Assembly (NCBI GenBank): GCA_964567695.1
Contig: CAZMNQ010000003.1
Location: 1-37,776 of the forward strand
DNA length: 37,776 nucleotides
Reading direction: 5' to 3'
DNA from: an uncultured Bdellovibrionales bacterium
GTDB lineage: Bacteria; Patescibacteriota; Minisyncoccia; Moranbacterales; UBA2206
Part shown: piece after piece, positions 1-26,282 of the stretch
Numbering within the stretch: the stretch's first letter is position 1
Layout: each line of letters opens with the position of its first letter
Program-made: the position numbers and the translations under genes
The notes under the pieces: model-generated
The model's database searches: none
What the model saw: only the letters and a program-made list of their open reading frames with translations
What the model was told of the DNA's origin: nothing

Positions 1-231
1 GGTGCACCAAACATCAAGGTTGGCGATAATGTGCCGGTGGCAATGGTGGGTGCAAAATTACCCAATGGTCTTGAAATCAAAGAAGCCGAAATTCGCGGGG
101 TAAAATCTTTTGGAATGCTTTGTGCTGAAGATGAGCTTGGGTTGGGTTCAGATCATGGCGGAATTATGATTTTAGATGAAAATGCCACGGTTGGAATGGA
201 GTTTACAAAATATATTGATTTACATAAATAA
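1..231 (+). CDS. 3' end of an ORF entering from upstream. It encodes a PheT-B2 / YtpR / Trbp111-type OB-fold tRNA-binding domain and stops right after that domain.
   Basis: Frame 1 is open from base 1. The translation GAPNIKVGDNVPVAMVGAKLPNGLEIKEAEIRGVKSFGMLCAEDELGLGSDHGGIMILD fits the classic PheRS beta-subunit N-terminal tRNA-binding signature (GAPN..G..V.VA..GA.LP.G..I....IRG..S.GMLC...ELGL). TAA stop at 229-231. Confidence 0.6.
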   Translation, partial: GAPNIKVGDNVPVAMVGAKLPNGLEIKEAEIRGVKSFGMLCAEDELGLGSDHGGIMILDENATVGMEFTKYIDLHK

Positions 232-234
232 TTA

Positions 235-297
235 ACCCTGTAGAGTAAATTCGCCGTGACGAATTATTTTTCCTAGGGGAAAATTACTCCACAGGGT
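235..297 (+). repeat. 63-nt inverted-repeat-bounded structured element, 4 nt after the stop codon of the upstream ORF
   Basis: Outer arms ACCCTGTAGAGTAA (235-248) and TTACTCCACAGGGT (284-297) pair at 13 of 14 positions. They enclose two small hairpins: AATTCG/CGAATT at 248-265 and TTTTTCC/GGGAAAA at 267-283. Confidence 0.6.
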
Positions 298-307
298 AAA
301 TAAAACT

Positions 308-1447
308 ATGAGAAAAATTGTTATTGAAGATCCGGACGAAAAAACACTAATAGAAGAGTTGAACAAAAGAAGTGATATAAAAGCCGAGCGCATAAAAAGG
401 CTTTTGGCTTTGTCAGACCTTACAAAAAAAGAGCATTCACCGGTGAAAATTTTATTTGATCAGATAATTAACCTGCCAAGGTTTGATGGTTTCGATATTG
501 TTGAATTTCCAAAGGTTATAACCGTAGAACAATGTTTCGATCTTCTGAACACGCCCAAAAATCATCCAAGTCGAGGAGAAACTGACACCTATTATCTGGA
601 TGACATTCATATTTTGAGAACGCAGATGACGGCTTTTTGGTCTTTTTATTTAAAAGACAAAGAGGTTTTAAAAAGATTGGAAGAAGAGGGCGAAATCAAA
701 GCTTTGGCTCCGGGAATCGTTTATAGAAAAGATGAAATAGACAGACATCACTTTCCCGCCTTTCATCAAATTGACGGGTTATTGATTTGCAAAAAAGATA
801 AAAAAATTATTACCCAAAAGGATCTGAAAGATGTTCAGATTGATTTAGCCAAGGGAATTTTCGGACCGGATATTGAGTATAAATTTTTGGAAGACACTTT
901 CCCGTATACAGTAGAAAGTTTGGAGATGGATATTAAATTCAATGGAAATTGGCTGGAAGTCAATGGCGCTGGGCTGGTTAATCCTGTTGTTTTAGAAAAA
1001 TTTGGCCTAGATCCCGAGGTTTATAATGGCTGGGCTTTTGGTTTTGGAGAAAGATTGGTCATGATAAAGATGGAAATACCGGATATTAGAATTCTTTGGT
1101 CGAATGACGAGCGAATTACAAGTCAATTTAAGGATATTAACAGCAAGTTTAAAGAAGTCAGTAAATTCCCCGCAACCATCAGAGATATCTCGTTTATCAT
1201 TAATAAGGATGTAAGCCTGAATAATTATTATGAAATTGTTCGGGATTACGCGGATAATCTGATTGAGGAAGTAAAACTTTTGGATGAATATGAAAATGAG
1301 GAAAAGTTTGGCAAGGATAAAAAAAGCTACACCTTTCGCATCGTTTATCGTTCATCTGAAAGAACATTAACTAACGAGGAAATTAATAAAATACAAACTG
1401 AAATCCGCACAAAAACCGAGAAGGAGTTAGGCGCATTACTCCGATAA
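308..1447 (+). CDS. pheS: Phenylalanyl-tRNA synthetase, mitochondrial-type single-chain architecture (class II catalytic core plus C-terminal FDX-ACB anticodon-binding domain)
   Basis: Class II motifs are present: NHPSRGETDTYYL, motif 2 region FPAFHQIDGL, motif 3 GWAFGFGERLVMIKMEIPDIRILW. About 95 extra C-terminal residues follow (KFPATIRDISFIINKD...KKSYTFRIVYRSSERTLTNEEIN...LGALLR), typical of the FDX-ACB fold. Confidence 0.85.
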   Translation: MRKIVIEDPDEKTLIEELNKRSDIKAERIKRLLALSDLTKKEHSPVKILFDQIINLPRFDGFDIVEFPKVITVEQCFDLLNTPKNHPSRGETDTYYLDDIHILRTQMTAFWSFYLKDKEVLKRLEEEGEIKALAPGIVYRKDEIDRHHFPAFHQIDGLLICKKDKKIITQKDLKDVQIDLAKGIFGPDIEYKFLEDTFPYTVESLEMDIKFNGNWLEVNGAGLVNPVVLEKFGLDPEVYNGWAFGFGERLVMIKMEIPDIRILWSNDERITSQFKDINSKFKEVSKFPATIRDISFIINKDVSLNNYYEIVRDYADNLIEEVKLLDEYENEEKFGKDKKSYTFRIVYRSSERTLTNEEINKIQTEIRTKTEKELGALLR

Positions 1448-1499: not shown

Positions 1500-4124
1500 A
1501 TGCGAGAAATTTCCAAACAATTTGATTTCAAAGAGAGGGAAGGGAAAATTTACGCGCTTTGGGAGAAGAGTGGGTTTTTTAATCCGGATAATATAAAATC
1601 TTCTAACCTGCCTGCCGGTAGGCAAGGAAAATATTGCAATGTTTTGCCGCCACCGAATGCCAATGGCGAATTGCATATCGGCCACGCCAGCGGTTATGCG
1701 GTGATGGATATTTTCGGCCGTTTCGAACGGATGGGTGGCAAAAAAGTTTTGCTTTTGCCAGGCAAAGATCATGCCGGCATCCAGACGCAAGTTGTTTTTG
1801 AGCGAAAAATAAAAGAAGAGCAAGGGATAATTCGCCAAGAAATGGGCCGGGGAAAATTTTACGCGGCTTGTTATGATTTTTGCATGGATCGCTCGAACTA
1901 TATGCGCTCGCAGGAAAAGAAAATCGGTATCAGCGCGGATTGGTCGCGGGAAAAATTTACACTGGATCCGGACGGATTGAAAATCGCGCTGGAGACTTTT
2001 GTAAAAATGTATAAAGATGGTTTGGTATATAAGGGTAATCGGATTATCAATTGGTGTTCGCGTTGCGCGACAGCTTTGAGTGATGTTGAGGTGGAGCACA
2101 AAGAAAGAGAGGGAAAATTATATTATATCAAATATCCAATCAAAGATTCCAAGGAATTCATTGTGGTGGCGACAACTCGTCCGGAAACAATGTTGGGAGA
2201 CTCTGCTGTGGCAGTTAATCCAAAAGACAAGAGATTCTTGGGTTTTATCGGCCAGAACTTGATTTTGCCATTGCAAAACAGGGAAATTCCCGTGATTGCC
2301 GATCGGCGAATTGATATGAAATTTGGAACCGGTGCGGTGAAGATTACGCCGGCGCATGATCCATTGGACTGGCAAATTGGCAAGGATCATAAATTGGAAG
2401 AAATTTTTGTCATTGATGAAAAAGCTAAAATTACGGAAGCCGGCGGTGAATATGTCGGTCTGGATGTTTTGGAGGCCAGAGAAAAAATTGTAGCCGATTT
2501 GCAAGGGCTGGGATTTTTGGAAAAAGAAGAATCTTTGACTAATGCTGTTTCTGTTTGTGAAAGATGTAAGACTATAATTGAGCCGTTGATTTCAAACCAA
2601 TGGTTTGTGTCGGTGGACTCGGAAAAATATTCCTTTAAGAAAAAAACTTTAGAGATGATCAAGTCCGGCAAGGTTGAGATTTATCCGGAAAATTTCAAAA
2701 AAATTCTCATCCATTGGTTAAATAATTTGCAGGATTGGTGTATTTCACGACAAATATGGTGGGGACCGCAGTTTCCAGTGTGGTATCGTGGCGAAGAGAT
2801 TTATGTCGGACTGGAAAAACCCAAAGGCAAGGATTCCGACTCCGCCAAGGCTACGACGGGCAAGTGGATTCAGGACGAAAATACTTTGGACACTTGGTTT
2901 TCTTCAAGTCAGTGGCCATATACAGCACTGGGTTATCCCAACGGAAAAGACTGTAAAAACTTTTATCCAACCGACGCTATGATTACGGGTCGTGATTTGT
3001 TGTTCTTTTGGGCAGCAAGAATGTTGATGATGGGTGGTTATCGTACCGGGAAAGTTCCTTTCAAAAATCTATATTTTACTGGCTTAATTTTGGACAAGGA
3101 TGGGCATAAATTTTCCAAGTCGCGAGGCAATGGCATTGACCCGCTAGAAATCATTGAAAAATATGGCGCGGATGCACTGCGTTTGAGCTTAGTGATGGAT
3201 ATTGCGCCGGGACAAGACGCGCGGCTCTATGAGGAAAAAATTGAAAGCTTCCGCAATTTTGTGACCAAGCTGTGGAATATTTTCCGCTATTGCAAGCAAT
3301 CGGATGAAAATTTTGCTTTGGTGGAAAAAATAAGCAAAAAAGATTTGAAAACTTTGTCAGACAGATGGATTGTTTCTGAATTGGAAGAGGTGACAAAAAA
3401 AGTTACACAATGCATGAAAGACAAGCAGATTTCTTTGGCGCAGGACGCATTGCGCAAATTTACTTGGGATAGTTTCGCTGATTGGTTCGTTGAAATAAAT
3501 AAACTGGAAAAGAATACTAAGGTTTTGGGCTATGTTCTGGACAAAATTTTGAAACTTTGGCATCCGTTCACGCCTTTTGTGACAGAGGAAATTTATCAAA
3601 TTTTGAATAAGAGTGAAGATATTTTGATGATGGCTAAATGGCCGAAAAGTGAAAAGAAATTTATTGATGCCAAGGCGCAGGCTAATTTTGCCGATCTGCA
3701 AGAATTGATTGCAAAAATTCGAAATATTCGGGCGAGTTATCACATTAATCCAGCGGAGTTGATAGAGGCGTATGGCAAGCTTAAGACCGAAAAAGAAATC
3801 GTGGAAAAACTCGGTCGAGTTAAAATTGAAACTAAGATTGCCAAAGAGAAAATGACCCAAATTTCTACTCGCAAGAGATCATTGCAACTGAATATCTCCA
3901 AATCGATAGATGTGGAAAAAGAAATTATTGCTTCAGCCAAAGAAATTCAAAATTTGACACAACTTGTGGCCAAAAACGAAGGTATGTTGAAAAACAAACA
4001 GTTTGTGGCTGGAGCGCCCAAGGAAATTATTGAGGCAACAAAGACAAGATTAGAAGAATATAAGGAAAAATTGGAGGTGCAAGCAGCGCTTAAGAATAGC
4101 CTAGAACAGCTTAAAAGAACTTAA
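1500..4124 (+). CDS. valS: Valyl-tRNA synthetase
   Basis: 874 aa. HIGH motif PPPNANGELHIGHA, KMSKS-type KFSKSRGN, DTWFSSSQWP and a C-terminal coiled coil. Carries a 21-nt palindromic insert near the N-terminus (1607-1627). Confidence 0.95.
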   Translation: MREISKQFDFKEREGKIYALWEKSGFFNPDNIKSSNLPAGRQGKYCNVLPPPNANGELHIGHASGYAVMDIFGRFERMGGKKVLLLPGKDHAGIQTQVVFERKIKEEQGIIRQEMGRGKFYAACYDFCMDRSNYMRSQEKKIGISADWSREKFTLDPDGLKIALETFVKMYKDGLVYKGNRIINWCSRCATALSDVEVEHKEREGKLYYIKYPIKDSKEFIVVATTRPETMLGDSAVAVNPKDKRFLGFIGQNLILPLQNREIPVIADRRIDMKFGTGAVKITPAHDPLDWQIGKDHKLEEIFVIDEKAKITEAGGEYVGLDVLEAREKIVADLQGLGFLEKEESLTNAVSVCERCKTIIEPLISNQWFVSVDSEKYSFKKKTLEMIKSGKVEIYPENFKKILIHWLNNLQDWCISRQIWWGPQFPVWYRGEEIYVGLEKPKGKDSDSAKATTGKWIQDENTLDTWFSSSQWPYTALGYPNGKDCKNFYPTDAMITGRDLLFFWAARMLMMGGYRTGKVPFKNLYFTGLILDKDGHKFSKSRGNGIDPLEIIEKYGADALRLSLVMDIAPGQDARLYEEKIESFRNFVTKLWNIFRYCKQSDENFALVEKISKKDLKTLSDRWIVSELEEVTKKVTQCMKDKQISLAQDALRKFTWDSFADWFVEINKLEKNTKVLGYVLDKILKLWHPFTPFVTEEIYQILNKSEDILMMAKWPKSEKKFIDAKAQANFADLQELIAKIRNIRASYHINPAELIEAYGKLKTEKEIVEKLGRVKIETKIAKEKMTQISTRKRSLQLNISKSIDVEKEIIASAKEIQNLTQLVAKNEGMLKNKQFVAGAPKEIIEATKTRLEEYKEKLEVQAALKNSLEQLKRT
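1607..1627. repeat. Family P1 palindromic core, degenerate copy, in frame inside valS
   Basis: CCTGCCTGCCGGTAGGCAAGG differs at 2 positions from the P1 consensus CCTGCCTGCCGGCAGGCAGG. It encodes LPAGRQG in the variable segment just before the HIGH motif. Confidence 0.7.
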
Positions 4125-17018: not shown

Positions 17019-18114
17019 TTAGTCCCGTACGGGAAATAATAATCTCGACCCGTTCCAGGGATTAGTGATAATCCCGTTGTTATAGGTCAAATCGTCAACT
17101 TTTTCGACAAGCTTACAGCGGTTAAATTCCTTGGAAATCGGAATCCCGAAAATCTTTCCGGCGTTCCAAGAAAGCAGTTCTGCTACGCGTTGATCAGAAA
17201 TGCCATGTTTTTGGGCGAGCGTGCAAATGACCGGAACCATTTCTTGGTTCGTGGGCAATCCTCCAAGTTTCTTTTCGATTTTTTCAGAGGTCGTGTGGTT
17301 TGCGTTGTCAGAACCGATAATAATCAATTTGATTATTTGTCAGAAGAAGACTTACGAGAAATTCACGATCTTCCCCTGAGCGTAGATTATTAAAGCACTT
17401 ATAAAAAACCGGATCCAAACTCGGATTCCAATTTGTGCCGTCCGCATCAAACCAGAGGTATTGCGGACAGAGCTCGATAACAATCCAAGGTCCTCGTAGT
17501 TGAGCTCGTAAGATAAGTTCGGCGTTTTGCCGGCACGAAACATGACAGATAACAATCTTGGCGCCTGGCACTTCTGATTCCAATGAAATCATATCTTCCA
17601 CATCAGCCACTTCGGCGTTAATGGAATTTCCTTCAATGGCAATAATTTCCGGGTTGTCGCAGTGGCGAGCATAAACCTTGCCATATTTCTTAGTAAGGCG
17701 CAGGCCGGCCAAGCGAGTTTCGCGACGACAAACCCCAATAGTTCCAGTTGTGACAGTTTTGCCGTCGGCGCTCAGGGGGTAATCCTTGAGTCCAATAACT
17801 TCATGATATTGGAGTGCGGCCTCGCATTCAGCCAGATTTGTATCTGTGATACCGAAATAGATAAATTGAGGGCATTGAATTCCAAGGACTGACTTGGCAT
17901 AGCGAATGAGGTTGATGTAGCGTCGGAGTATTTCCAATGTCGTGATTGCTGGTTTTGTATTCGGCATAAAAATGGAAGTTGAAATATGCGCTCCCATTGC
18001 TTCCAATAGAGTTTGATAGGGGGTTGTTTTATAAGATTGTTCCATGCCCCGGCTATGACAATGGCTGTCAATTATCATTGCTATCAAATACAAATACATT
18101 ATTGATCTAGACAT
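17019..18114 (-). pseudogene. pyrC: Dihydroorotase-like cyclic amidohydrolase split by a 1-nt frameshift (ORFs 17308-18114 and 17019-17327)
   Basis: N-terminal ORF has DSHCHSRG (HxH metal site), MPNTKP and CHVS. C-terminal ORF continues with IIIGSDNANH (equivalent to the D-H-A-P-H region). The two ORFs overlap by 20 nt in different frames. A canonical AAGGAG lies 8 nt upstream of the ATG at 18114. Confidence 0.7.
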
Positions 18115-18262: not shown

Positions 18263-18691
18263 ATGGAAAAAAAGATAATTATGTACACAGACGGCGGATC
18301 GCATAATAATCCTGGACCGGCTGGAATTGGCATTTGGATTGAGACGCTAAATAAAAAATATGGTGAATATATTGGCATAAAAACCAATAACGAGGCGGAA
18401 TATATGGCCTTGATTTCTGGTCTGAAAAAGCTGAAACAACTGTTAGGTAAAACAGTCAAACAAGCGGAAATCGAGTGCTATTTGGATAGTGAGTTGGTAG
18501 TGAAACAATTGAATCACGAATACAAACTCAAAGATGAACGGATTCAGCAATTTTTTATCGAGATTTGGAATTTGATGCTGGAATTCAAGGCAGTTAAATT
18601 CAGGCATATTTTGCGCGAGAAAAATAAAATTGCTGACGCTTTGGTTAACGAAGCTTTGGACGCGCAGGAAAGACAAAAAAGTTTTTTATAA
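18263..18691 (+). CDS. rnhA: Ribonuclease HI
   Basis: MYTDGGSHNNPGPAGIG, NNEAEYMALISGL, DSELVVKQL, N..AD.L. DEDD catalytic pattern of type 1 RNase H. Confidence 0.85.
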   Translation: MEKKIIMYTDGGSHNNPGPAGIGIWIETLNKKYGEYIGIKTNNEAEYMALISGLKKLKQLLGKTVKQAEIECYLDSELVVKQLNHEYKLKDERIQQFFIEIWNLMLEFKAVKFRHILREKNKIADALVNEALDAQERQKSFL

Positions 18692-18711
18692 AAATTAAAA
18701 TATAGATCATC

Positions 18712-19722
18712 ATGAATATGAAAAAATATAGAAAAAGAATAATTTGGAGCCTGATTATCTTGGCGGTGATTTATGGCGGTTATAAATATTTTTCCGACAA
18801 CAAGCCGGTGACTACCTATGTCACGGAAGATGTGGCCAAAGGCACTTTGACGCAAACTGTTTCGGCGACGGGAAGATTTGATTCCAACGAACAAGTGGAT
18901 TTGTCATTCAAATCAACTGGTCGAATTGAAAAAATAAATGTGCAAATTGGCGACAAGGTTGTGAAAGGCCAACAATTGGCGGTGATGGAAAAAGGCGCTT
19001 TGGCGGAACAATTGCGACAAGCGGAAGCGGATATACAAGCGCAAAAAAATACTTTGAGCGATATGGTGGATAAAAAAGACACCACGACAAAAGATCAGCG
19101 CGACACGCAAAGAGCGATTGTGCAGAAAGTGGAAGCGGCGCGAGATGGGGTTTTGCGCCAGATAAGAGAAACTTCCATAGTTTCGCCGATAGACGGAATT
19201 GTGATTCAAAAAAATAATGAGGCAGGTGAATTGATTGCGGCGAACTCGCTGGTTCTGGCCGTAGCCAATCCAAATGATTTGGTTATTGAATCAAATATTC
19301 CGGAAGTCGACATTATTAAGGTGGCTATCGGGCAATCTGCCATAGTAACTTTTGATGCCCTGACGGAGAAGGATGTTTTTATAGCCAAGGTGATTGAAAT
19401 TGATCCGGCTTCGACCGTGATTCAGGATGTGGTTTTCTATCGCGTCAAATTGAAAATTGATAACGCTGACGGTCGGCTCAAGATTGGCATGAGTTGCAAT
19501 GATGATATTTTGACGGCGGAAAAAAATGATGTATTAATGATTCCGGAGCGCGCCGTGAAAACAGAAGGCGAAAAACAATTTGTAGAAGTTTTAAAAGCCG
19601 ATGGCATCACGATTGAAAAAGTCTATGTTGAAACCGGTTTGTCAGGGGACAACGGAATGATTGAAGTGAAGAACAATTTGAAAGAAGGCGAGAAAGTTGT
19701 GACTCTTACAAAAAGCGTATAA
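18712..19722 (+). CDS. Membrane-fusion / periplasmic adaptor protein (HlyD/MacA/YknX type)
   Basis: N-terminal TM, lipoyl-like hairpin (GRIEKINVQIGDKVVKGQQLAVM ... SPIDGIVI), central coiled coil and beta-barrel C-terminus. Confidence 0.8.
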   Translation: MNMKKYRKRIIWSLIILAVIYGGYKYFSDNKPVTTYVTEDVAKGTLTQTVSATGRFDSNEQVDLSFKSTGRIEKINVQIGDKVVKGQQLAVMEKGALAEQLRQAEADIQAQKNTLSDMVDKKDTTTKDQRDTQRAIVQKVEAARDGVLRQIRETSIVSPIDGIVIQKNNEAGELIAANSLVLAVANPNDLVIESNIPEVDIIKVAIGQSAIVTFDALTEKDVFIAKVIEIDPASTVIQDVVFYRVKLKIDNADGRLKIGMSCNDDILTAEKNDVLMIPERAVKTEGEKQFVEVLKADGITIEKVYVETGLSGDNGMIEVKNNLKEGEKVVTLTKSV

Positions 19723-19777
19723 AACAGGCAGTTCTTCAAATTTACCAAGGCACTTTTTTTAATTATACTCTTATTTT

Positions 19778-20506
19778 ATGAATTTGTCAAGTTTAATTCA
19801 GATAAAAAATTTATCAAAAACTTACGAAAATGAAGGGGTCGCGACTCCGGCAGTTTGCAGCGTGTCATTTGCGATTGAAAAAGGTGAATTTGTTTCAATT
19901 ATGGGACCGTCCGGTTCCGGCAAATCAACCCTGATGCAGATGTTGGGTTTTTTGGATCGGCCGACTGACGGAGAATATTTGTTTGAAGAAAAAAACACCG
20001 AGGGTTTCTCGGATGATGAGCTGGCGGAAATTCGCAATTCCAAAGTTGGTTTTGTTTTTCAAACCTTCAATTTGTTGCCCAGAACGACAGTTTTTGAAAA
20101 TGTCGAACTGCCGCTTCTATATGACAAAAAATTTTTCGAAGATAACACGCAAAAAGTTTTACAAGCTTTGCGCAGCGTTGGTATGGAACACCGCAAGGAC
20201 TATTTTTCCAATCAACTTTCCGGCGGTGAACGGCAGCGCGTGGCCATTGCGCGCGCTTTGGTCAATGACCCAAGTGTGATTTTTGCCGATGAACCAACTG
20301 GCAACCTGGATTCCAAATCCGGCACGCAAGTGATGAAAATTTTGCAGAAACTCAACGACGAAGGCAAGACAATAATCCTTGTTACACATGAGACTTTCAC
20401 CGCTGAGCATGGCAAGAGAATTATTAAGATGGTGGATGGAGCCATTGTTTTTGATGAGCTGATTGCCAATCGTCGTATTGCAACCGATGGTGAATTATTG
20501 AAATAG
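19778..20506 (+). CDS. ABC transporter ATP-binding protein, MacB/LolD family
   Basis: Walker A GPSGSGKST, signature LSGGERQRVAIARAL, Walker B VIFADEPTGNLD, H-loop VTHE. Confidence 0.9.
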   Translation: MNLSSLIQIKNLSKTYENEGVATPAVCSVSFAIEKGEFVSIMGPSGSGKSTLMQMLGFLDRPTDGEYLFEEKNTEGFSDDELAEIRNSKVGFVFQTFNLLPRTTVFENVELPLLYDKKFFEDNTQKVLQALRSVGMEHRKDYFSNQLSGGERQRVAIARALVNDPSVIFADEPTGNLDSKSGTQVMKILQKLNDEGKTIILVTHETFTAEHGKRIIKMVDGAIVFDELIANRRIATDGELLK

Positions 20507-20523
20507 AAAAATAGGCTAATATT

Positions 20524-21774
20524 ATGCGATTCACTGATCCGGTTAAAATTTCATATCGCAATTTGGTGGCGAACAAGTTTCGTTCTTTTTTGACGATTCT
20601 GGGAATTGTGATTGGAGTGGGGTCGGTGATTGTGATTATGGCGATTGGAGGTTCAGCGCAATCCTTGATTTTGAGTCAGATTTCCGGAATCGGTTCAAAT
20701 TTAGTCGGTGTTTTGCCGGGAGCTTCCGATGAAAAAGACCCGCCGGCGCAAGCGCTGGGAATTATCATTACCACTTTAACCTATGACGATTTTCTATCCT
20801 TGGTAGATAAAAAAAATGTTCCGAGTGTGGAAACCGGAGCGGCCTATGCGCAAGGAACACAAACTGTTTCACATCAGGATAATGATTTTTCTCTTGCGAT
20901 TATGGGTGTTACGCATGACTATATAAATGTGGAAAGTGTCGAAGTGGCGGAAGGAAGATTTTTTTCCTTGGAGGATGATGGGAGCCTTTCGCGAATTGTT
21001 GTTTTGGGCGCGAATGTCAAGGAAGATCTTTTTGGACAGGATAACGCGCTGGGAAAAAAAATAAAAATAAAGAACGAAAATTTTACGGTAATTGGAATTT
21101 TGAAGAAAAAAGGGAGCGCCGGCTTTGGCGTGGCAAGTCCGGACGATTCAGTCATTGTTCCATTAAAAACCGCGCAAAAAATAATTCTTGGAATAAATCA
21201 TTTGTCTTTTTTACGCTTGAAAATAAAAAGCATTGATGAAATTTCCAACGCAAAAGAAGACATCGTAATAACTTTACGAGAGCGCCATAATATTAAAAAT
21301 TCGAAAGATGATGATTTTTCGGTGCGTGATATTGCATCAGCTCTGGATACGATTACCAATGTTACTAATGTTTTGAAATATTTTTTGCTGGCCGTCGGAT
21401 CCATTTCTCTCTTGGTGGGCGGAGTGGGGATTATGAATATAATGCTTATTTCGGTTAATCAGCGGATTCGAGAAGTGGGGCTGAGAAAAGCGGTGGGAGC
21501 AAAAAACGGAACGATTATGACCCAATTTTTGATTGAATCGGTAACAATAACCTTGATTGGAGGAATTATTGGAATTATTTTGGGAGTATTAATTGCTTTT
21601 CTTATTTCAATCATCATCATTAATATATTCGGATATGATTGGAAGTTTATTGTTTCTTGGCAATCGATTGCGGTAGCAACGACAGTTTCAATTCTAATTG
21701 GTTTGATTTTTGGGTTGTATCCCGCCCGCAAAGCTTCACACATAAGTCCGATGGAAGCCTTGCGATATGAATAA
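20524..21774 (+). CDS. ABC transporter permease, MacB-PCD plus FtsX domain (paralog 1)
   Basis: N-terminal TM, large extracytoplasmic domain, C-terminal FtsX-type helices with GGVGIMNIMLISVNQRIREVGLRKAVGA and YPARKASHISPMEALRYE. Confidence 0.85.
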   Translation: MRFTDPVKISYRNLVANKFRSFLTILGIVIGVGSVIVIMAIGGSAQSLILSQISGIGSNLVGVLPGASDEKDPPAQALGIIITTLTYDDFLSLVDKKNVPSVETGAAYAQGTQTVSHQDNDFSLAIMGVTHDYINVESVEVAEGRFFSLEDDGSLSRIVVLGANVKEDLFGQDNALGKKIKIKNENFTVIGILKKKGSAGFGVASPDDSVIVPLKTAQKIILGINHLSFLRLKIKSIDEISNAKEDIVITLRERHNIKNSKDDDFSVRDIASALDTITNVTNVLKYFLLAVGSISLLVGGVGIMNIMLISVNQRIREVGLRKAVGAKNGTIMTQFLIESVTITLIGGIIGIILGVLIAFLISIIIINIFGYDWKFIVSWQSIAVATTVSILIGLIFGLYPARKASHISPMEALRYE

Positions 21775-23029
21775 AATTATGCATGGAATTTTAATTTCAA
21801 TTAAATTAGCTCTACACAATTTGCGTTCTAATGTGGGCAGAACGACTTTGTCCGTTTTAGGAATTGTGATTGGCGTGGTGTCAGTCGTTCTGGTTCTTTC
21901 ACTTGGTTTTGGAGTGAAAAACTATATTGTTGGCCAAATCGAATCTTTTGGAACGGATATAATTCAAGTGGAAGTGAAAGTTCCCCAAACGAAGCAGATG
22001 TCCGCAAAAAATATACAAGGAACAGCAAGCGGTTCAATTACTACTTTGAAAATTGACGATCTGGAAGAGGTTGGAAAATTGCCAAACATTGCCGGTTGGT
22101 ATGGAGCAAGTATTGGACAGGCTATTGCAAGTTACGGCTCAGAAACCAAACAGACCATAATTTATGCTGCCACAGCCGGAATTTTTGATATTGATCAACA
22201 AATAAAATTTGCAGCTGGTCTGGGTTATACAAATGATGAAGATAGGAGTTTGAATCAAGTGGTTGTTTTGGGGAGTCAAATCAAAGAAACTCTTTTCAAG
22301 GATGAAAATCCGGTAGGAAAAAACATTAAAGTAAAGGGCTTAAACTATCGGGTAATTGGTTATCTTGAAGAAAGAGGTTCGATGGCTTTTTTTAATTTTG
22401 ATGATTTGATATATATTCCGCTGGAAACTTATCAGAAAAAAATTGCAGGCATAGATTATGCGCAATCATCAATTTTTAAATTAAAAGATAAAAAGTTGAC
22501 TGATTTGACCATAGCTCAAACCGTGGATGTTATGCGGGATCGTCACAACATCACCGATCCGGAAAAAGATGATTTTGTGGTGGCATCTATTGAGGAGTTT
22601 ACAACGATGCTGGAGGATGTCTTTTTGATTGTCAATTTTCTTCTGATCTCTCTGACCTCAATTTCTTTGATTGTGGGCGGAGTGGGGATTATGAATGTGA
22701 TGTATGTTTCAGTGGTGGAGAGAACGCCAGAAATAGGCCTGCGCAAGGCCGTTGGAGCTAAAAATTCCAATATTCTTAAGCAATTTTTATTTGAATCAAT
22801 CTTTATAACAATTTTGGGCGGATTAGCGGGTATTGCTATTGGAGTGATTGTGGCTTTTTTTGCCACCAAGATGGCCATAAATGCCGGATATACAATATCC
22901 TTTGAAGTGTCCTGGTACGCCATTTCAATAGGCATTGTTTTTTCTGTTATAACCGGGGTGGGTTTCGGACTCTATCCGGCGCGCAAAGCTTCGCAATTGT
23001 CGCCGATGGAAGCATTGAGAAAAGAATAA
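21767..23029 (+). CDS. ABC transporter permease, MacB-PCD plus FtsX domain (paralog 2)
   Basis: Same architecture: GGVGIMNVMYVSVVERTPEIGLRKAVGA and YPARKASQLSPMEALRKE. Overlaps the previous gene by 8 nt. Confidence 0.85.
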   Translation: MNKIMHGILISIKLALHNLRSNVGRTTLSVLGIVIGVVSVVLVLSLGFGVKNYIVGQIESFGTDIIQVEVKVPQTKQMSAKNIQGTASGSITTLKIDDLEEVGKLPNIAGWYGASIGQAIASYGSETKQTIIYAATAGIFDIDQQIKFAAGLGYTNDEDRSLNQVVVLGSQIKETLFKDENPVGKNIKVKGLNYRVIGYLEERGSMAFFNFDDLIYIPLETYQKKIAGIDYAQSSIFKLKDKKLTDLTIAQTVDVMRDRHNITDPEKDDFVVASIEEFTTMLEDVFLIVNFLLISLTSISLIVGGVGIMNVMYVSVVERTPEIGLRKAVGAKNSNILKQFLFESIFITILGGLAGIAIGVIVAFFATKMAINAGYTISFEVSWYAISIGIVFSVITGVGFGLYPARKASQLSPMEALRKE

Positions 23030-23148
23030 TAATATTACGCAATACAAACAAATATGGTGCAAGTTGTTGCCTTTTTATGTTTATGCTAGTCTTTAGATAG
23101 GAGTATTTAAAAATTACAAAATTAAAAATTATAAAATTTAAATAAATT

Positions 23149-23475
23149 ATGGAAGAAGAAAATAAAATTAGCGAAGCGGAAGTTGAAAAAATAGAAAAAA
23201 TTGAAACAGAGCGGAATAAAAAAATGGATGTCTATATTGAATTCGCCCTGATTTTTATTTTAGGGATCCTCATCGGCATCGCTGTCAAAACCGAGGCTAA
23301 CAAAAAAATAACAATCGGCTTTGATGATTATCAGATGAAATTGTCCAAGCAGGATTTTAATATTAATAATTTGCAATTCGAGGTCGCTAAAAAGAATGTG
23401 GAGGAAGCGAAGATGGCCGAAGATGAAGCGCAAAAACAAAACAATGAAGCGCCAGTTGATGGAAGTGGAAATTAA
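23149..23475 (+). CDS. Small single-pass membrane protein, unknown function
   Basis: Charged N-terminus, one hydrophobic helix (VYIEFALIFILGILIGIAV), charged C-terminus. No recognisable family. Confidence 0.4.
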   Translation: MEEENKISEAEVEKIEKIETERNKKMDVYIEFALIFILGILIGIAVKTEANKKITIGFDDYQMKLSKQDFNINNLQFEVAKKNVEEAKMAEDEAQKQNNEAPVDGSGN

Positions 23476-23504
23476 TTTATAAATAAAAATATTTAATAAA
23501 AACT

Positions 23505-24521
23505 ATGGAATCAAAGAATGATAAAAAAATAAAGAATTTAATTTCAATCGCAATTCTTTTGGGCGGTCTTTTTGTCGGCAGTCTGTTTGTGGATGTGACA
23601 CAAATCATCAAGGGCAGTGGATTTTCTTCTAAGAATTTGAGCAAATCTGAAATTTTTGAGGCGAATGGCAAAACTTGGGTGGCCTACAGCGAGCCGGTGG
23701 TGGGCGTGAAAGTCATCAGTGATGATGCTTGCGACAAATGTGATCCATCCGAGGCCTTGGTGTGGTTGCGACGGGTCTTGCCGACAATCAGCGCGGAAAA
23801 GGTGGCTTTCGACAGCCAAGACGGCAAGGATTTGATTAACAAATTCGGCATAACGACTTTGCCAGCCTTTATTTTTGATGGAAATATTGCCAAGACGGAT
23901 TTTTATTCCCAGGCGCAAGTTCTGTTTGACGCAAAAGATGATTTGTATATCTTAAAAACGCAAGAGCTGGGGCTGACTCCTGGCAAATATTTGAATATTC
24001 CGGAAGTGAAAGAGGGCGATGCAACCTTTGGAAAGGCTGATTCAACCGTGAAAGTTGTGGTCTTTTCTGATTTTCAATGTCCATTTTGCAGATCTTTCTG
24101 GAATTCGCTACGCACGACGATGAAAGGCTATGAAGACAAGGTTTTGTTTGCCTATAAACATTTGCCACTTGGCATCCATCCGCAAGCTAATAATGCCGCG
24201 CTGGCTTCCAGTTGCGCGCAAGAACAAAATAAATTCTGGGAATATGGCGATAAGCTATATGCGACGCAAGCTGCTTGGGCATCGACAGCTGACACTCAAA
24301 TATTCAAAGACTATGCCAAAAGTCTAAGATTGGATGAAAATCAGTTCAATGAATGTCTGGACAGCAAAAAATATCAGGACAAAATCGATGCGGACAAAAA
24401 TGAAGCCAACAGCTTCGGCGTCTCAGGCACTCCTGCCACCTTCATCAACAGCCAGTTCAAAAATGGCGTCGTCAGCGCCGATGATTTGAAAACAGCAATC
24501 GATCAAGAATTAGCGAAATGA
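23505..24521 (+). CDS. Membrane-anchored DsbA-family thiol:disulfide oxidoreductase
   Basis: N-terminal TM. Thioredoxin-fold active site FSDFQCPFCRSF and cis-Pro region FGVSGTPATFIN. A degenerate second thioredoxin-like segment lies N-terminal. Confidence 0.8.
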   Translation: MESKNDKKIKNLISIAILLGGLFVGSLFVDVTQIIKGSGFSSKNLSKSEIFEANGKTWVAYSEPVVGVKVISDDACDKCDPSEALVWLRRVLPTISAEKVAFDSQDGKDLINKFGITTLPAFIFDGNIAKTDFYSQAQVLFDAKDDLYILKTQELGLTPGKYLNIPEVKEGDATFGKADSTVKVVVFSDFQCPFCRSFWNSLRTTMKGYEDKVLFAYKHLPLGIHPQANNAALASSCAQEQNKFWEYGDKLYATQAAWASTADTQIFKDYAKSLRLDENQFNECLDSKKYQDKIDADKNEANSFGVSGTPATFINSQFKNGVVSADDLKTAIDQELAK

Positions 24522-25453: not shown

Positions 25454-25735
25454 ATGGCAAAGATGACAAAGTCACAGTTGCTCGTTACTCTTGCAGAGCA
25501 AACAGGGCTGGCAAAGAAAGATGTGAAAAACTTTCTTGATGTGCTAACAGCACTAGCGTACAAAGAAGTTAAGAAGGTTGGAGAATTTGTTCTACCTGGG
25601 TTTGGAAAGATGGTAAAAGCAAAAAGAAAGGCGCGAGCTGGAGTTAATCCTGCTACAGGAGAAAAAATCCAAATTGCCGCAAAAACTGTTGTTAAATTTA
25701 GATTGGCAAAAGCTGCTAAAGAAGCAGTTCTATAG
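25454..25735 (+). CDS. hup: HU-family DNA-binding protein
   Basis: 93 aa. MTKSQLL..LAEQTGL.KKD...FLD, GFGKMVKAKRKARAGVNPATGEKIQIAAK (beta-arm with RNP-like signature). Confidence 0.9.
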   Translation: MAKMTKSQLLVTLAEQTGLAKKDVKNFLDVLTALAYKEVKKVGEFVLPGFGKMVKAKRKARAGVNPATGEKIQIAAKTVVKFRLAKAAKEAVL

Positions 25736-25937: not shown

Positions 25938-26282
25938 ATGACAGAAATTATTCAAGACAGAGACTTCGTTGAATATATTGTGAAACAAATTGTTAACAAT
26001 CCAGACGCAGTCAAGGTTGACAGAAAAATTGACGAAATGGGTGTTCTTATTTCATTGGATGTAGCTCCAGAGGATATGGGAATGGTTATTGGTCGAGAAG
26101 GAGCAACAGCGAAAGCTCTTCGAACTCTACTTCGAGTTATCGGTGCCAAGAACAACGCCAGAGTTAATCTTAAAATAAACGAACCGGAAGGATCAACCAG
26201 AGAACCTCGCGAACCTCGTGAAAATAATGAAAATCGTGAAAGAAAAAGTATTGATGAGGTTGTTGGAGATATTCAAATATAG
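25938..26282 (+). CDS. KH-domain RNA-binding protein (KhpA/YlqC, UPF0109 type) with charged C-terminal tail
   Basis: IVKQIVNNPDAVKV......L.VAPEDMGMVIGREGATAKALRTLL matches the UPF0109 KH fold. Tail is EPEGSTREPREPRENNENRERKS. Confidence 0.8.
   Translation: MTEIIQDRDFVEYIVKQIVNNPDAVKVDRKIDEMGVLISLDVAPEDMGMVIGREGATAKALRTLLRVIGAKNNARVNLKINEPEGSTREPREPRENNENRERKSIDEVVGDIQI

Follow-up and report, generated by a model that had tools for sequence, protein, structure and literature searches.

Can a bacterium charge tRNA-Phe with a phenylalanyl-tRNA synthetase (PheRS) that consists of a single chain, as mitochondria do? This question is raised by an open reading frame (ORF) at positions 308-1447 of contig CAZMNQ010000003.1 (GenBank assembly GCA_964567695.1). 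The stretch of DNA analysed here, called the window below, has 37.8 kb (37,776 nucleotides) and a GC content of ~39%. Its source lineage is Moranbacteria (Parcubacteria/Paceibacteria; Patescibacteria or Candidate Phyla Radiation, CPR), which NCBI places in the Parcubacteria group. According to a 2010 review (PMC3275996), the PheRS heterotetramer is conserved in all known prokaryotes, whereas the monomer, consisting of a catalytic core and an FDX-ACB domain and fully active in this form, is mitochondrial. Those parts of AARS Online and of a related Nucleic Acids Research paper that were available present PheRS-M without bacterial members, and none of the papers retrieved in our full-text literature searches describes a single-chain PheRS from a bacterium. 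We propose, with a probability of roughly 0.7, that ORF 308-1447 encodes the functional housekeeping and probably sole PheRS of this Moranbacteria organism, because genomes of this class are small (~0.9 Mb), the active site is preserved, the gene is present class-wide and it stands in a housekeeping context. We infer that the protein aminoacylates tRNA-Phe as a monomer, that the genome lacks pheT and that editing is missing.

Domain structure of the protein

The initial annotation, made from the DNA letters, described a PheS-like core fused directly to an FDX-ACB-like domain, with bacterial PheS's N-terminal coiled coil reduced to about 45 residues. A Pfam search of the ORF (379 aa plus stop) confirms this description. 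The tRNA-synt_2d domain (PF01409) covers aa 39-274 (E 4.4e-51, 174 bits), and FDX-ACB (PF03147) was found precisely at aa 285-379, as predicted (E 3e-25, 88.9 bits, profile positions 1-94 of 94). Both strings quoted for the latter domain were recovered, KFPATIRDISFII spanning aa 286-298 and SYTFRIVYRSSERTLTNEEIN spanning aa 340-360. No third domain was found above the cut-off in the 379-aa protein, and neither B3_4, B5 and tRNA_synthFbeta nor the Phe_tRNA-synt_N coiled coil (PF02912) matched it; only ~38-45 residues precede the core, and the TIGR00468 alignment begins at aa 12 of the protein, corresponding to profile position 40. Thus, the protein combines a PF01409 core carrying motifs 1-3 (motif 3 being one residue short) with a C-terminal FDX-ACB domain, and no other beta-subunit domain was detected. 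Homologues with 79-94% identity have equal length and the common start MRK. The features of the gene are as follows (all on the plus strand).

308-1447, plus strand: single-chain PheRS gene (core and FDX-ACB), an ORF with ATG start; PF01409 and PF03147
308-421, plus strand: short N-terminal helical segment (aa 1-38), a remnant of the PheS coiled-coil arm; no PF02912 match, predicted helices at aa 11-20 and 24-34
422-1129, plus strand: class II PheS catalytic core (aa 39-274; PF01409), aligning with E. coli PheS 108-327
539-637, plus strand: motif 1 and substrate-site segment DLLNTPKNHPSR..DTYYL..ILRTQMT (aa 78-110), assigned from alignment columns shared with canonical, mitochondrial and SrmL proteins
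707-787, plus strand: motif 2 APGIVYRKDEIDRHHFPAFHQIDGLLI (aa 134-160), invariant in 40 homologues and matching canonical and mitochondrial PheRS
899-919, plus strand: strand of the Phe pocket, FPYTVES (aa 198-204), a derived form of FPFT(D/E)PS
1025-1066, plus strand: motif 3 NGWAFGFG-ERLVMI (aa 240-253) with a lineage-specific deletion of one residue; Ala243 and Arg249 kept
1067-1159, plus strand: C-terminal tail conserved in PheS (EIPDIRILWSNDERITSQF), which aligns with the C-terminus of E. coli PheS, followed by a short linker to the second domain (together aa 254-284); low model confidence at aa 280-284
1160-1444, plus strand: FDX-ACB (B8-type) anticodon-binding domain (aa 285-379; PF03147), matching TIGR00472 positions 689-798

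Active site

The active-site residues were compared in an alignment of 95 sequences comprising canonical PheS, the "PheS-related mystery ligase" SrmL (NF051887), Paceibacteria, phage-like and eukaryotic mitochondrial proteins (the human FARS2 sequence was confirmed against PDB entry 3CMQ). The Paceibacteria proteins retain HPSR, DTYY, LRTQ(M/T)T, YRKDEIDxxHxPxFHQIDG, FP(Y/F)T, GAG and GWAFGFG(x)ERL. Of the two motifs initially annotated as intact, motif 2 (GIVYRKDEIDRHHFPAFHQIDG) is so, but motif 3 is not: as GWAFGFG-ERL, it lacks one residue in comparison with GxGxERL, although the invariant Arg is kept. Furthermore, the local strings thought to resemble mitochondrial enzymes more than E. coli PheS turned out to be general PheS features, as E. 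coli PheS also possesses the H(H)PxR segment (as HHPAR) and ends with ...DLRSFFENDLRFLKQFK.

The subclade to which the window protein belongs has FPYTVES where deeper Paceibacteria, mitochondrial and canonical proteins have FPFT(D/E)PS, and the deletion in motif 3 is conserved within this subclade but not in deeper Paceibacteria. Indeed, the deeper orthologues from loci L075, L082 and L083 are fully canonical (FPFTDPS and GFGLERL). Judged from these residues, the 379-aa protein appears to be a genuine PheRS whose pocket has slightly drifted in one subclade.

Phylogeny

In an exhaustive HMMER search, 238 of 1.84 billion cluster representatives matched below 1e-30, and both domains were present in 86 of the top 150. 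The clades among these matches include SrmL, eukaryotic mitochondrial PheRS (e.g., of amphioxus and wallaby) and phage-like proteins of ~350 aa, encoded on contigs of 160-341 kb that resemble those of huge phages, several of which score above the cut-off of TIGR00469 (pheS_mito); P0122 is a protein from an Oligoflexia metagenome-assembled genome (MAG). Trees of the core were built by neighbour joining (217 columns, 100 bootstraps) with 13 canonical PheS, two of them from small-genome CPR-like lineages. The single-chain cores were monophyletic with respect to the canonical PheS in 100/100 replicates. Within them, the Paceibacteria proteins together with four sisters were supported by 100, SrmL by 100 and the remainder, mitochondrial and phage proteins, by 52-66 of 100 replicates; the trees gave no clear branching order for these three groups. 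The 74 single-chain FDX-ACB domains were likewise monophyletic against 26 PheT B8 domains (86/100). In these neighbour-joining trees of limited sampling, both domains therefore share ancestry with mitochondrial PheRS and not with canonical PheS/PheT.

The proposed phylogeny check had two sides. A clade shared with the mitochondrial proteins was recovered, but the window protein does not fall among the mitochondrial orthologues and belongs to a clade of its own. Judged from the sequences, "mitochondrial-type" is right for the architecture and for the shared origin of the fused gene, and the Paceibacteria enzyme is a sister clade rather than an orthologue. Raw identity shows no mitochondrial preference, the core being 38.7% identical to human mitochondrial PheRS and 39.7% to E. 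coli PheS; for the anticodon-binding domain, the values are 36% to the human enzyme and 34-35% to B8 of CPR-like PheT. The canonical PheS nearest to the single-chain clade are those of the small-genome CPR-like lineages (loci L088 and L089; 64/100). A recent local fusion of a CPR pheS-pheT pair was considered and rejected: the Paceibacteria cores grouped with CPR-like canonical PheS in 0/100 replicates, and the same was true of the anticodon-binding domains and CPR-like PheT.

Structure comparison and relation to known enzymes

The best PDB sequence match is human mitochondrial PheRS (8P8X/3CMQ; E 1e-53, 186 bits), which is matched over both domains. Owing to ~25 inserted residues that follow motif 2 in the human enzyme, the alignment is split in two. 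By contrast, E. coli PheS matches over the core only (139 bits), and PheT chains match aa 280-379 only. An AlphaFold2 model built from 40 homologues was of moderate quality (mean predicted local distance difference test score (pLDDT) 73.7, predicted template modelling score 0.63) and was least reliable in the loop of motif 2, the helix of motif 3 and the linker between the domains. In Foldseek, this predicted fold superposed over both domains on the closed human mitochondrial PheRS 3CMQ (template modelling (TM) score 0.76/0.72, root mean square deviation 3.5 Å, 392 columns), whereas the TM score with the open, tRNA-bound form 3TUP was 0.57 and bacterial PheS chains spanned only ~234 columns. 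The claim of a FARS2-type single-chain architecture in a bacterium is thus borne out by the domain search, the PDB sequence search, the predicted fold and the trees of both domains.

Three groups of known proteins are close enough for a direct comparison, besides the viral proteins treated below. Mitochondrial PheRS (FARS2, 3CMQ/3TUP; yeast MSF1; TIGR00469; "PheRS-M") shares with the window protein the PheS core followed by B8/FDX-ACB, the lack of editing, B5 and catalytic-like domains, the residues of motifs 1-3 and of the Phe pocket, the best match in sequence and fold and the common clade of both domains. The window protein differs from it by the bacterial host, the absence of a targeting peptide, its own N-terminal helices (38 aa), the lack of the insertion after motif 2, a clade apart from the mitochondrial and phage group, a score below the TIGR00469 cut-off, the identity of only ~39% (core) and 36% (anticodon-binding domain) and, in its subclade, FPYTVES and the motif 3 deletion. 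In comparison with canonical (alpha-beta)2 PheRS (E. coli 3PCO, Thermus thermophilus 1EIY), the core is ~40% identical to E. coli PheS including the C-terminal tail, and PheT B8 is homologous to the FDX-ACB domain. However, a single chain takes the place of two, the beta-subunit domains B1-B7 are lacking, the coiled-coil arm is shortened and no pheT is adjacent; the protein also scores below the TIGR00468 cut-off and falls outside canonical PheS (100/100). Finally, SrmL is a two-domain single chain as well (~350-420 aa) and belongs to the same superclade. Its members (P0186, P0195, P0213, P0242, P0255, P0269) form a distinct clade (100/100) and have replaced HPSR, DTFY, FHQ and FPFT, as would fit an enzyme with another substrate.

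Distribution and conservation

At E<=1e-10, 5112 protein clusters (90% identity) match the window protein, and all 120 of the matches listed for them have the two-domain layout (345-398 aa, nearly all 379-380). The E-values and the thousands of homologues of equal layout rule out a chance two-domain match. The closest proteins (79-94% identical, 379-380 aa) come from MAGs of Candidatus Moranbacteria and other Patescibacteria. In a scan of GTDB (one genome per species), in which loci were retrieved with peptide patterns taken from the PheRS protein itself, 92 stretches encode a relative; the best 80 of these 92 loci were kept (59-94% identity) and have the core and FDX-ACB architecture in common. 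The credible lineage names among the loci (Moran-, Staskawicz-, Wildermuth-, Ryan-, Taylor-, Wolfe- and Jorgensenbacteria) all belong to Parcubacteria/Paceibacteria, and one locus lies on a complete chromosome of 876,331 bp (OY969557.1). P0121, the nearest representative at 50% clustering, stands for a further 6361 clusters (Paceibacterota, Minisyncoccia, Liptonbacteria, Yanofskybacteria, Parcubacteria), and several related clusters are on contigs of 0.89-0.91 Mb. Bacterial single-chain PheRS sequences are abundant in public databases and partly auto-annotated. All these homologues are labelled as "hypothetical protein" by NCBI, whereas JGI labels them as "phenylalanyl-tRNA synthetase alpha chain".

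Single-chain PheRS genes can also be found on huge-phage-like contigs (160-430 kb) and contigs of giant-virus MAGs (L085 10001-11065, L086 8001-9047, L090-L105). Among deposited phage genomes (INPHARED), there was one match (LR745206.1, 613869-614858), in a record without annotation. These proteins have the same architecture and several pass TIGR00469, but they group with the mitochondrial clade rather than with Paceibacteria. Viral shuttling of near-identical copies, considered as a cause of the high conservation described below, was discarded, as identity to the window protein is only 30-44% for the copies detected in IMG/VR, which come from contigs of huge phages and giant viruses.

The PheRS gene of most other Paceibacteria is located among rpsB, tsf, gyrB, nusG and hsp20, in the order rpsB, tsf, one gene, PheRS, gyrB; in 41 loci gyrB is at most three genes away. 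The ~700-aa downstream gene of these loci (cluster 1), suspected to be a hidden divergent PheT, is GyrB. Within the same loci, the median pairwise identity of PheRS exceeds that of its neighbours (71% against 60% for GyrB, 74% against 59% for valyl-tRNA synthetase (ValRS), 82% against 49% for tyrosyl-tRNA synthetase (TyrRS)), a comparison biased by the retrieval of the loci with peptide patterns of PheRS itself.

Is it the only PheRS?

No second pheS and no pheT is found among the other genes of the window, which encode ValRS, enolase, iPGM, PfkB, an ADP-forming acyl-CoA synthetase, RecJ, RNase H, a MacB-type ABC system, DsbA, SpoU, TrmD, FtsW, MurG/C/B, HPF, GatB, MiaA and MiaB. Similarity to B3/4, B5 or B6/7 was absent from the window and from 1.33 Mb of related loci; tblastn with E. 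coli PheT against the latter matched only a YtpR-like gene and the fused FDX-ACB, and no infC-rpmI-rplT neighbourhood was found in them. When the PheT of L088, a locus from another small-genome lineage, was used as a database query, ~48 related clusters were followed by Chloroflexi proteins (36-37% identity) among the matches listed; none of these carried a Parcubacteria/Paceibacteria name or was on a contig equal in length to one that bears the fused gene, although a more divergent PheT would be missed.

A number of points weigh against the proposal of a functional and sole housekeeping PheRS. The active site of the window subclade carries the derived changes FPYTVES and the motif 3 deletion, and the confidence of the AlphaFold2 model is poor exactly around the changed sites (aa 140-152 and 248-264). 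The protein reaches 240.4 bits on TIGR00469, below the cut-off of 258.35, and 167.7 bits on TIGR00468 (pheS), below 237.45. The trees were made by neighbour joining only, with thin canonical sampling, and the conservation comparison has the bias mentioned above. As to pheT, the search covered the window and 1.33 Mb of related loci, so that a canonical or archaeal-type pheS/pheT may lie elsewhere in the genome; canonical pheS-pheT operons do occur in other small-genome lineages, namely in L088 (6001-9416; PheT of 803 aa) and in L089 (4862-9184; infC-rpmI-rplT-pheS-pheT, PheT of 705 aa without the B2 tRNA_bind domain, GC 26%), and CPR PheRS-beta proteins are mentioned in a 2017 paper (PMC5370408).

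With respect to the model scores, the protein departs from the TIGR00468 class on other counts as well (PF02912 unmatched, adjacent pheT in 0/79 loci), and the TIGR00469 cut-off is passed by some of its relatives (P0121 with 264 bits, phage-like proteins with 260-308 bits). Its top NCBIfam score is that of SrmL (244.9 bits), slightly above pheS_mito. Together with the altered pocket residues and the shortened motif 3, this could indicate a PheS-derived ligase of another substrate, similar to SrmL. However, 244.9 bits is below the cut-off of that model (300), which true members of SrmL exceed with 376-447 bits; the trees set SrmL apart as a clade of its own in 100/100 replicates; HPSR, DTFY, FHQ and FPFT, the positions lost in SrmL, are retained in the window protein; and the deeper Paceibacteria orthologues are fully canonical at FPFTDPS and GFGLERL. 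We regard such a function as very improbable.

The points listed above for pheT would also fit an accessory paralogue, with a canonical (alpha-beta)2 or archaeal-type PheRS encoded elsewhere in the genome and the single-chain protein serving, e.g., as a stress, resistance or tRNA-isoacceptor-specific form; the related SrmL clade presumably represents such a paralogue. Yet two PheRS systems would be unusual in genomes of ~0.9 Mb (contigs of 876-914 kb), and the gene is class-wide, found in housekeeping contexts and more conserved than those for GyrB, ValRS and TyrRS. The search with L088 PheT, with its ~48 related clusters and no Paceibacteria name among the matches listed as opposed to thousands of clusters for the single-chain enzyme, points weakly in the same direction. 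An accessory role seems unlikely on balance, and a housekeeping, probably sole PheRS remains our preferred interpretation.

Proposed mechanism

By analogy with human and yeast mitochondrial PheRS, the PheS-type core would bind Phe and ATP and form Phe-AMP. The C-terminal FDX-ACB domain would read the GAA anticodon of tRNA-Phe; closed onto the core at first, it would swing into an open position upon tRNA binding, and Phe would then be passed to A76. No beta subunit would be needed, so that the B3/B4 editing site, B5 and the catalytic-like B6/B7 module would be absent. Lacking the B3/B4 site, the enzyme would have to rely on the synthetic site or on trans factors for the discrimination of Tyr and meta-tyrosine (m-Tyr).

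Gene context

The neighbourhood of the PheRS gene contains the following further features.

1-234, plus strand: 3' end (last 77 codons and stop, cut by the window edge) of a gene for a tRNA-binding protein of the PheT N-terminal (B1-B2)/YtpR type; tRNA_bind, pheT_bact positions 81-157
235-298, plus strand: hairpin/palindromic insert of ~64 nt ahead of the PheRS gene, probably unconnected with the system; predicted RNA fold of -25.4 kcal/mol (z -4.96), occurring once in the window
1500-4124, plus strand: ValRS gene, downstream neighbour (context only), identified by Pfam; order kept in Moranbacteria loci

The order TyrRS, YtpR-like gene, PheRS gene is found in 14 Moranbacteria-type loci; in Moranbacteria, ValRS comes next. 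The incomplete fragment of the upstream gene in the window scores 78.1 on YtpR. Its full-length orthologue in L001 (9371-9826; 151 aa) scores 120.2 on YtpR (NF045760, cut-off 100) and can be assigned to this family; an identification as TapR was dismissed (49.6 on NF045867, cut-off 120). The same orthologue matches pheT_bact positions 28-154 with 137.5 bits, and the 151-aa protein is 48% identical to the N-terminus of the full-length PheT of L088. Possibly this protein is what remained of a beta subunit after its dismantling, or it acts in trans as a cofactor that binds tRNA.

These matches, as well as the location of the gene directly 5' of the PheRS gene in the 14 loci, are in line with a two-piece minimal PheRS, in which the B1-B2 protein, as what is left of the beta subunit, would aid PheRS, TyrRS or both in trans; such an arrangement would be compatible with the single-chain enzyme proposed here. 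Nevertheless, the 151-aa gene is coupled more tightly to the TyrRS gene, as only 13 bp lie between these two in close relatives but 77-175 bp between it and the PheRS gene, and it is not beside the PheRS gene in most other Paceibacteria loci. Furthermore, E. coli PheRS can dispense with its B2 domain (Roy & Ibba 2006, cited in PMC5370408), and the CPR B2-TyrRS fusions described in PMC5370408 point to a link with TyrRS. Such a two-piece PheRS seems rather unlikely.

The hairpin at 235-298 is absent from relatives, in most of which the spacer has only ~20-40 nt; being lineage-specific, it was rejected as a conserved leader. At the corresponding site, L001 and L041 carry hairpin inserts that differ from it, which suggests that small palindromes insert preferentially there. 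Upstream of the PheRS gene, no regulatory RNA was detected by Rfam at gathering thresholds and no tRNA by ARAGORN, and the results of scans for promoters and terminators did not exceed those for shuffled sequences.

Several additional observations concern the surroundings of the gene. In L004-L083, identities as low as 40-46% occur for TyrRS and ValRS (in two loci, ~30% for ValRS) where PheRS still has 72-91%; this contrast, to which the ascertainment bias also applies, may reflect non-orthologous replacement of TyrRS/ValRS or an unusually strong constraint on PheRS. A block consisting of RNase H, HlyD, ABC, MacB, MacB and DsbA genes is located ~17 kb downstream of the PheRS gene in the window (18263-24521) and directly upstream of the TyrRS gene in a 94%-identical relative (L001 1-8069). 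As its position differs between close relatives, a local rearrangement must have taken place. In the apparent gap before trmD, an HU/IHF-like DNA-binding protein (25454-25735, 93 aa) and a KH-domain-like protein (25938-26282, 114 aa) were recognized by eye. The ORF at 17308-18114 (minus strand, 268 aa) has no Pfam match.

Implications

A wider scenario can be put forward tentatively. In it, Paceibacteria/Parcubacteria (thousands of species) would have swapped the (alpha-beta)2 PheRS for an editing-less single chain, the fused gene would share its origin with the mitochondrial, huge-phage, giant-virus and SrmL genes, and mitochondrial PheRS, instead of being a eukaryotic invention, would belong to an older bacterial/viral family from which eukaryotes took it over in fused form. 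We consider this scenario possible, though on present evidence it is less probable than its opposite.

The current models TIGR00468 and TIGR00472 miss the enzyme, and it appears as "hypothetical" in the Prokaryotic Genome Annotation Pipeline (PGAP) and as "alpha chain" at JGI. Provided that it is the only PheRS of Paceibacteria, this would affect completeness estimates and metabolic reconstructions of CPR genomes, and PheRS engineering would gain a bacterial scaffold that is compact and highly conserved. The interest of the case would rise if its status as the sole enzyme and the origin shared with the mitochondrial enzyme were confirmed. If it is the only PheRS, the translation of Phe codons in a very large bacterial radiation would depend on the smallest class II synthetase known and would proceed without cis-editing of Tyr and m-Tyr, which bears on translational fidelity in reduced genomes. 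In that case, the origin of mitochondrial PheRS would become testable as a horizontal acquisition from bacteria or phages.

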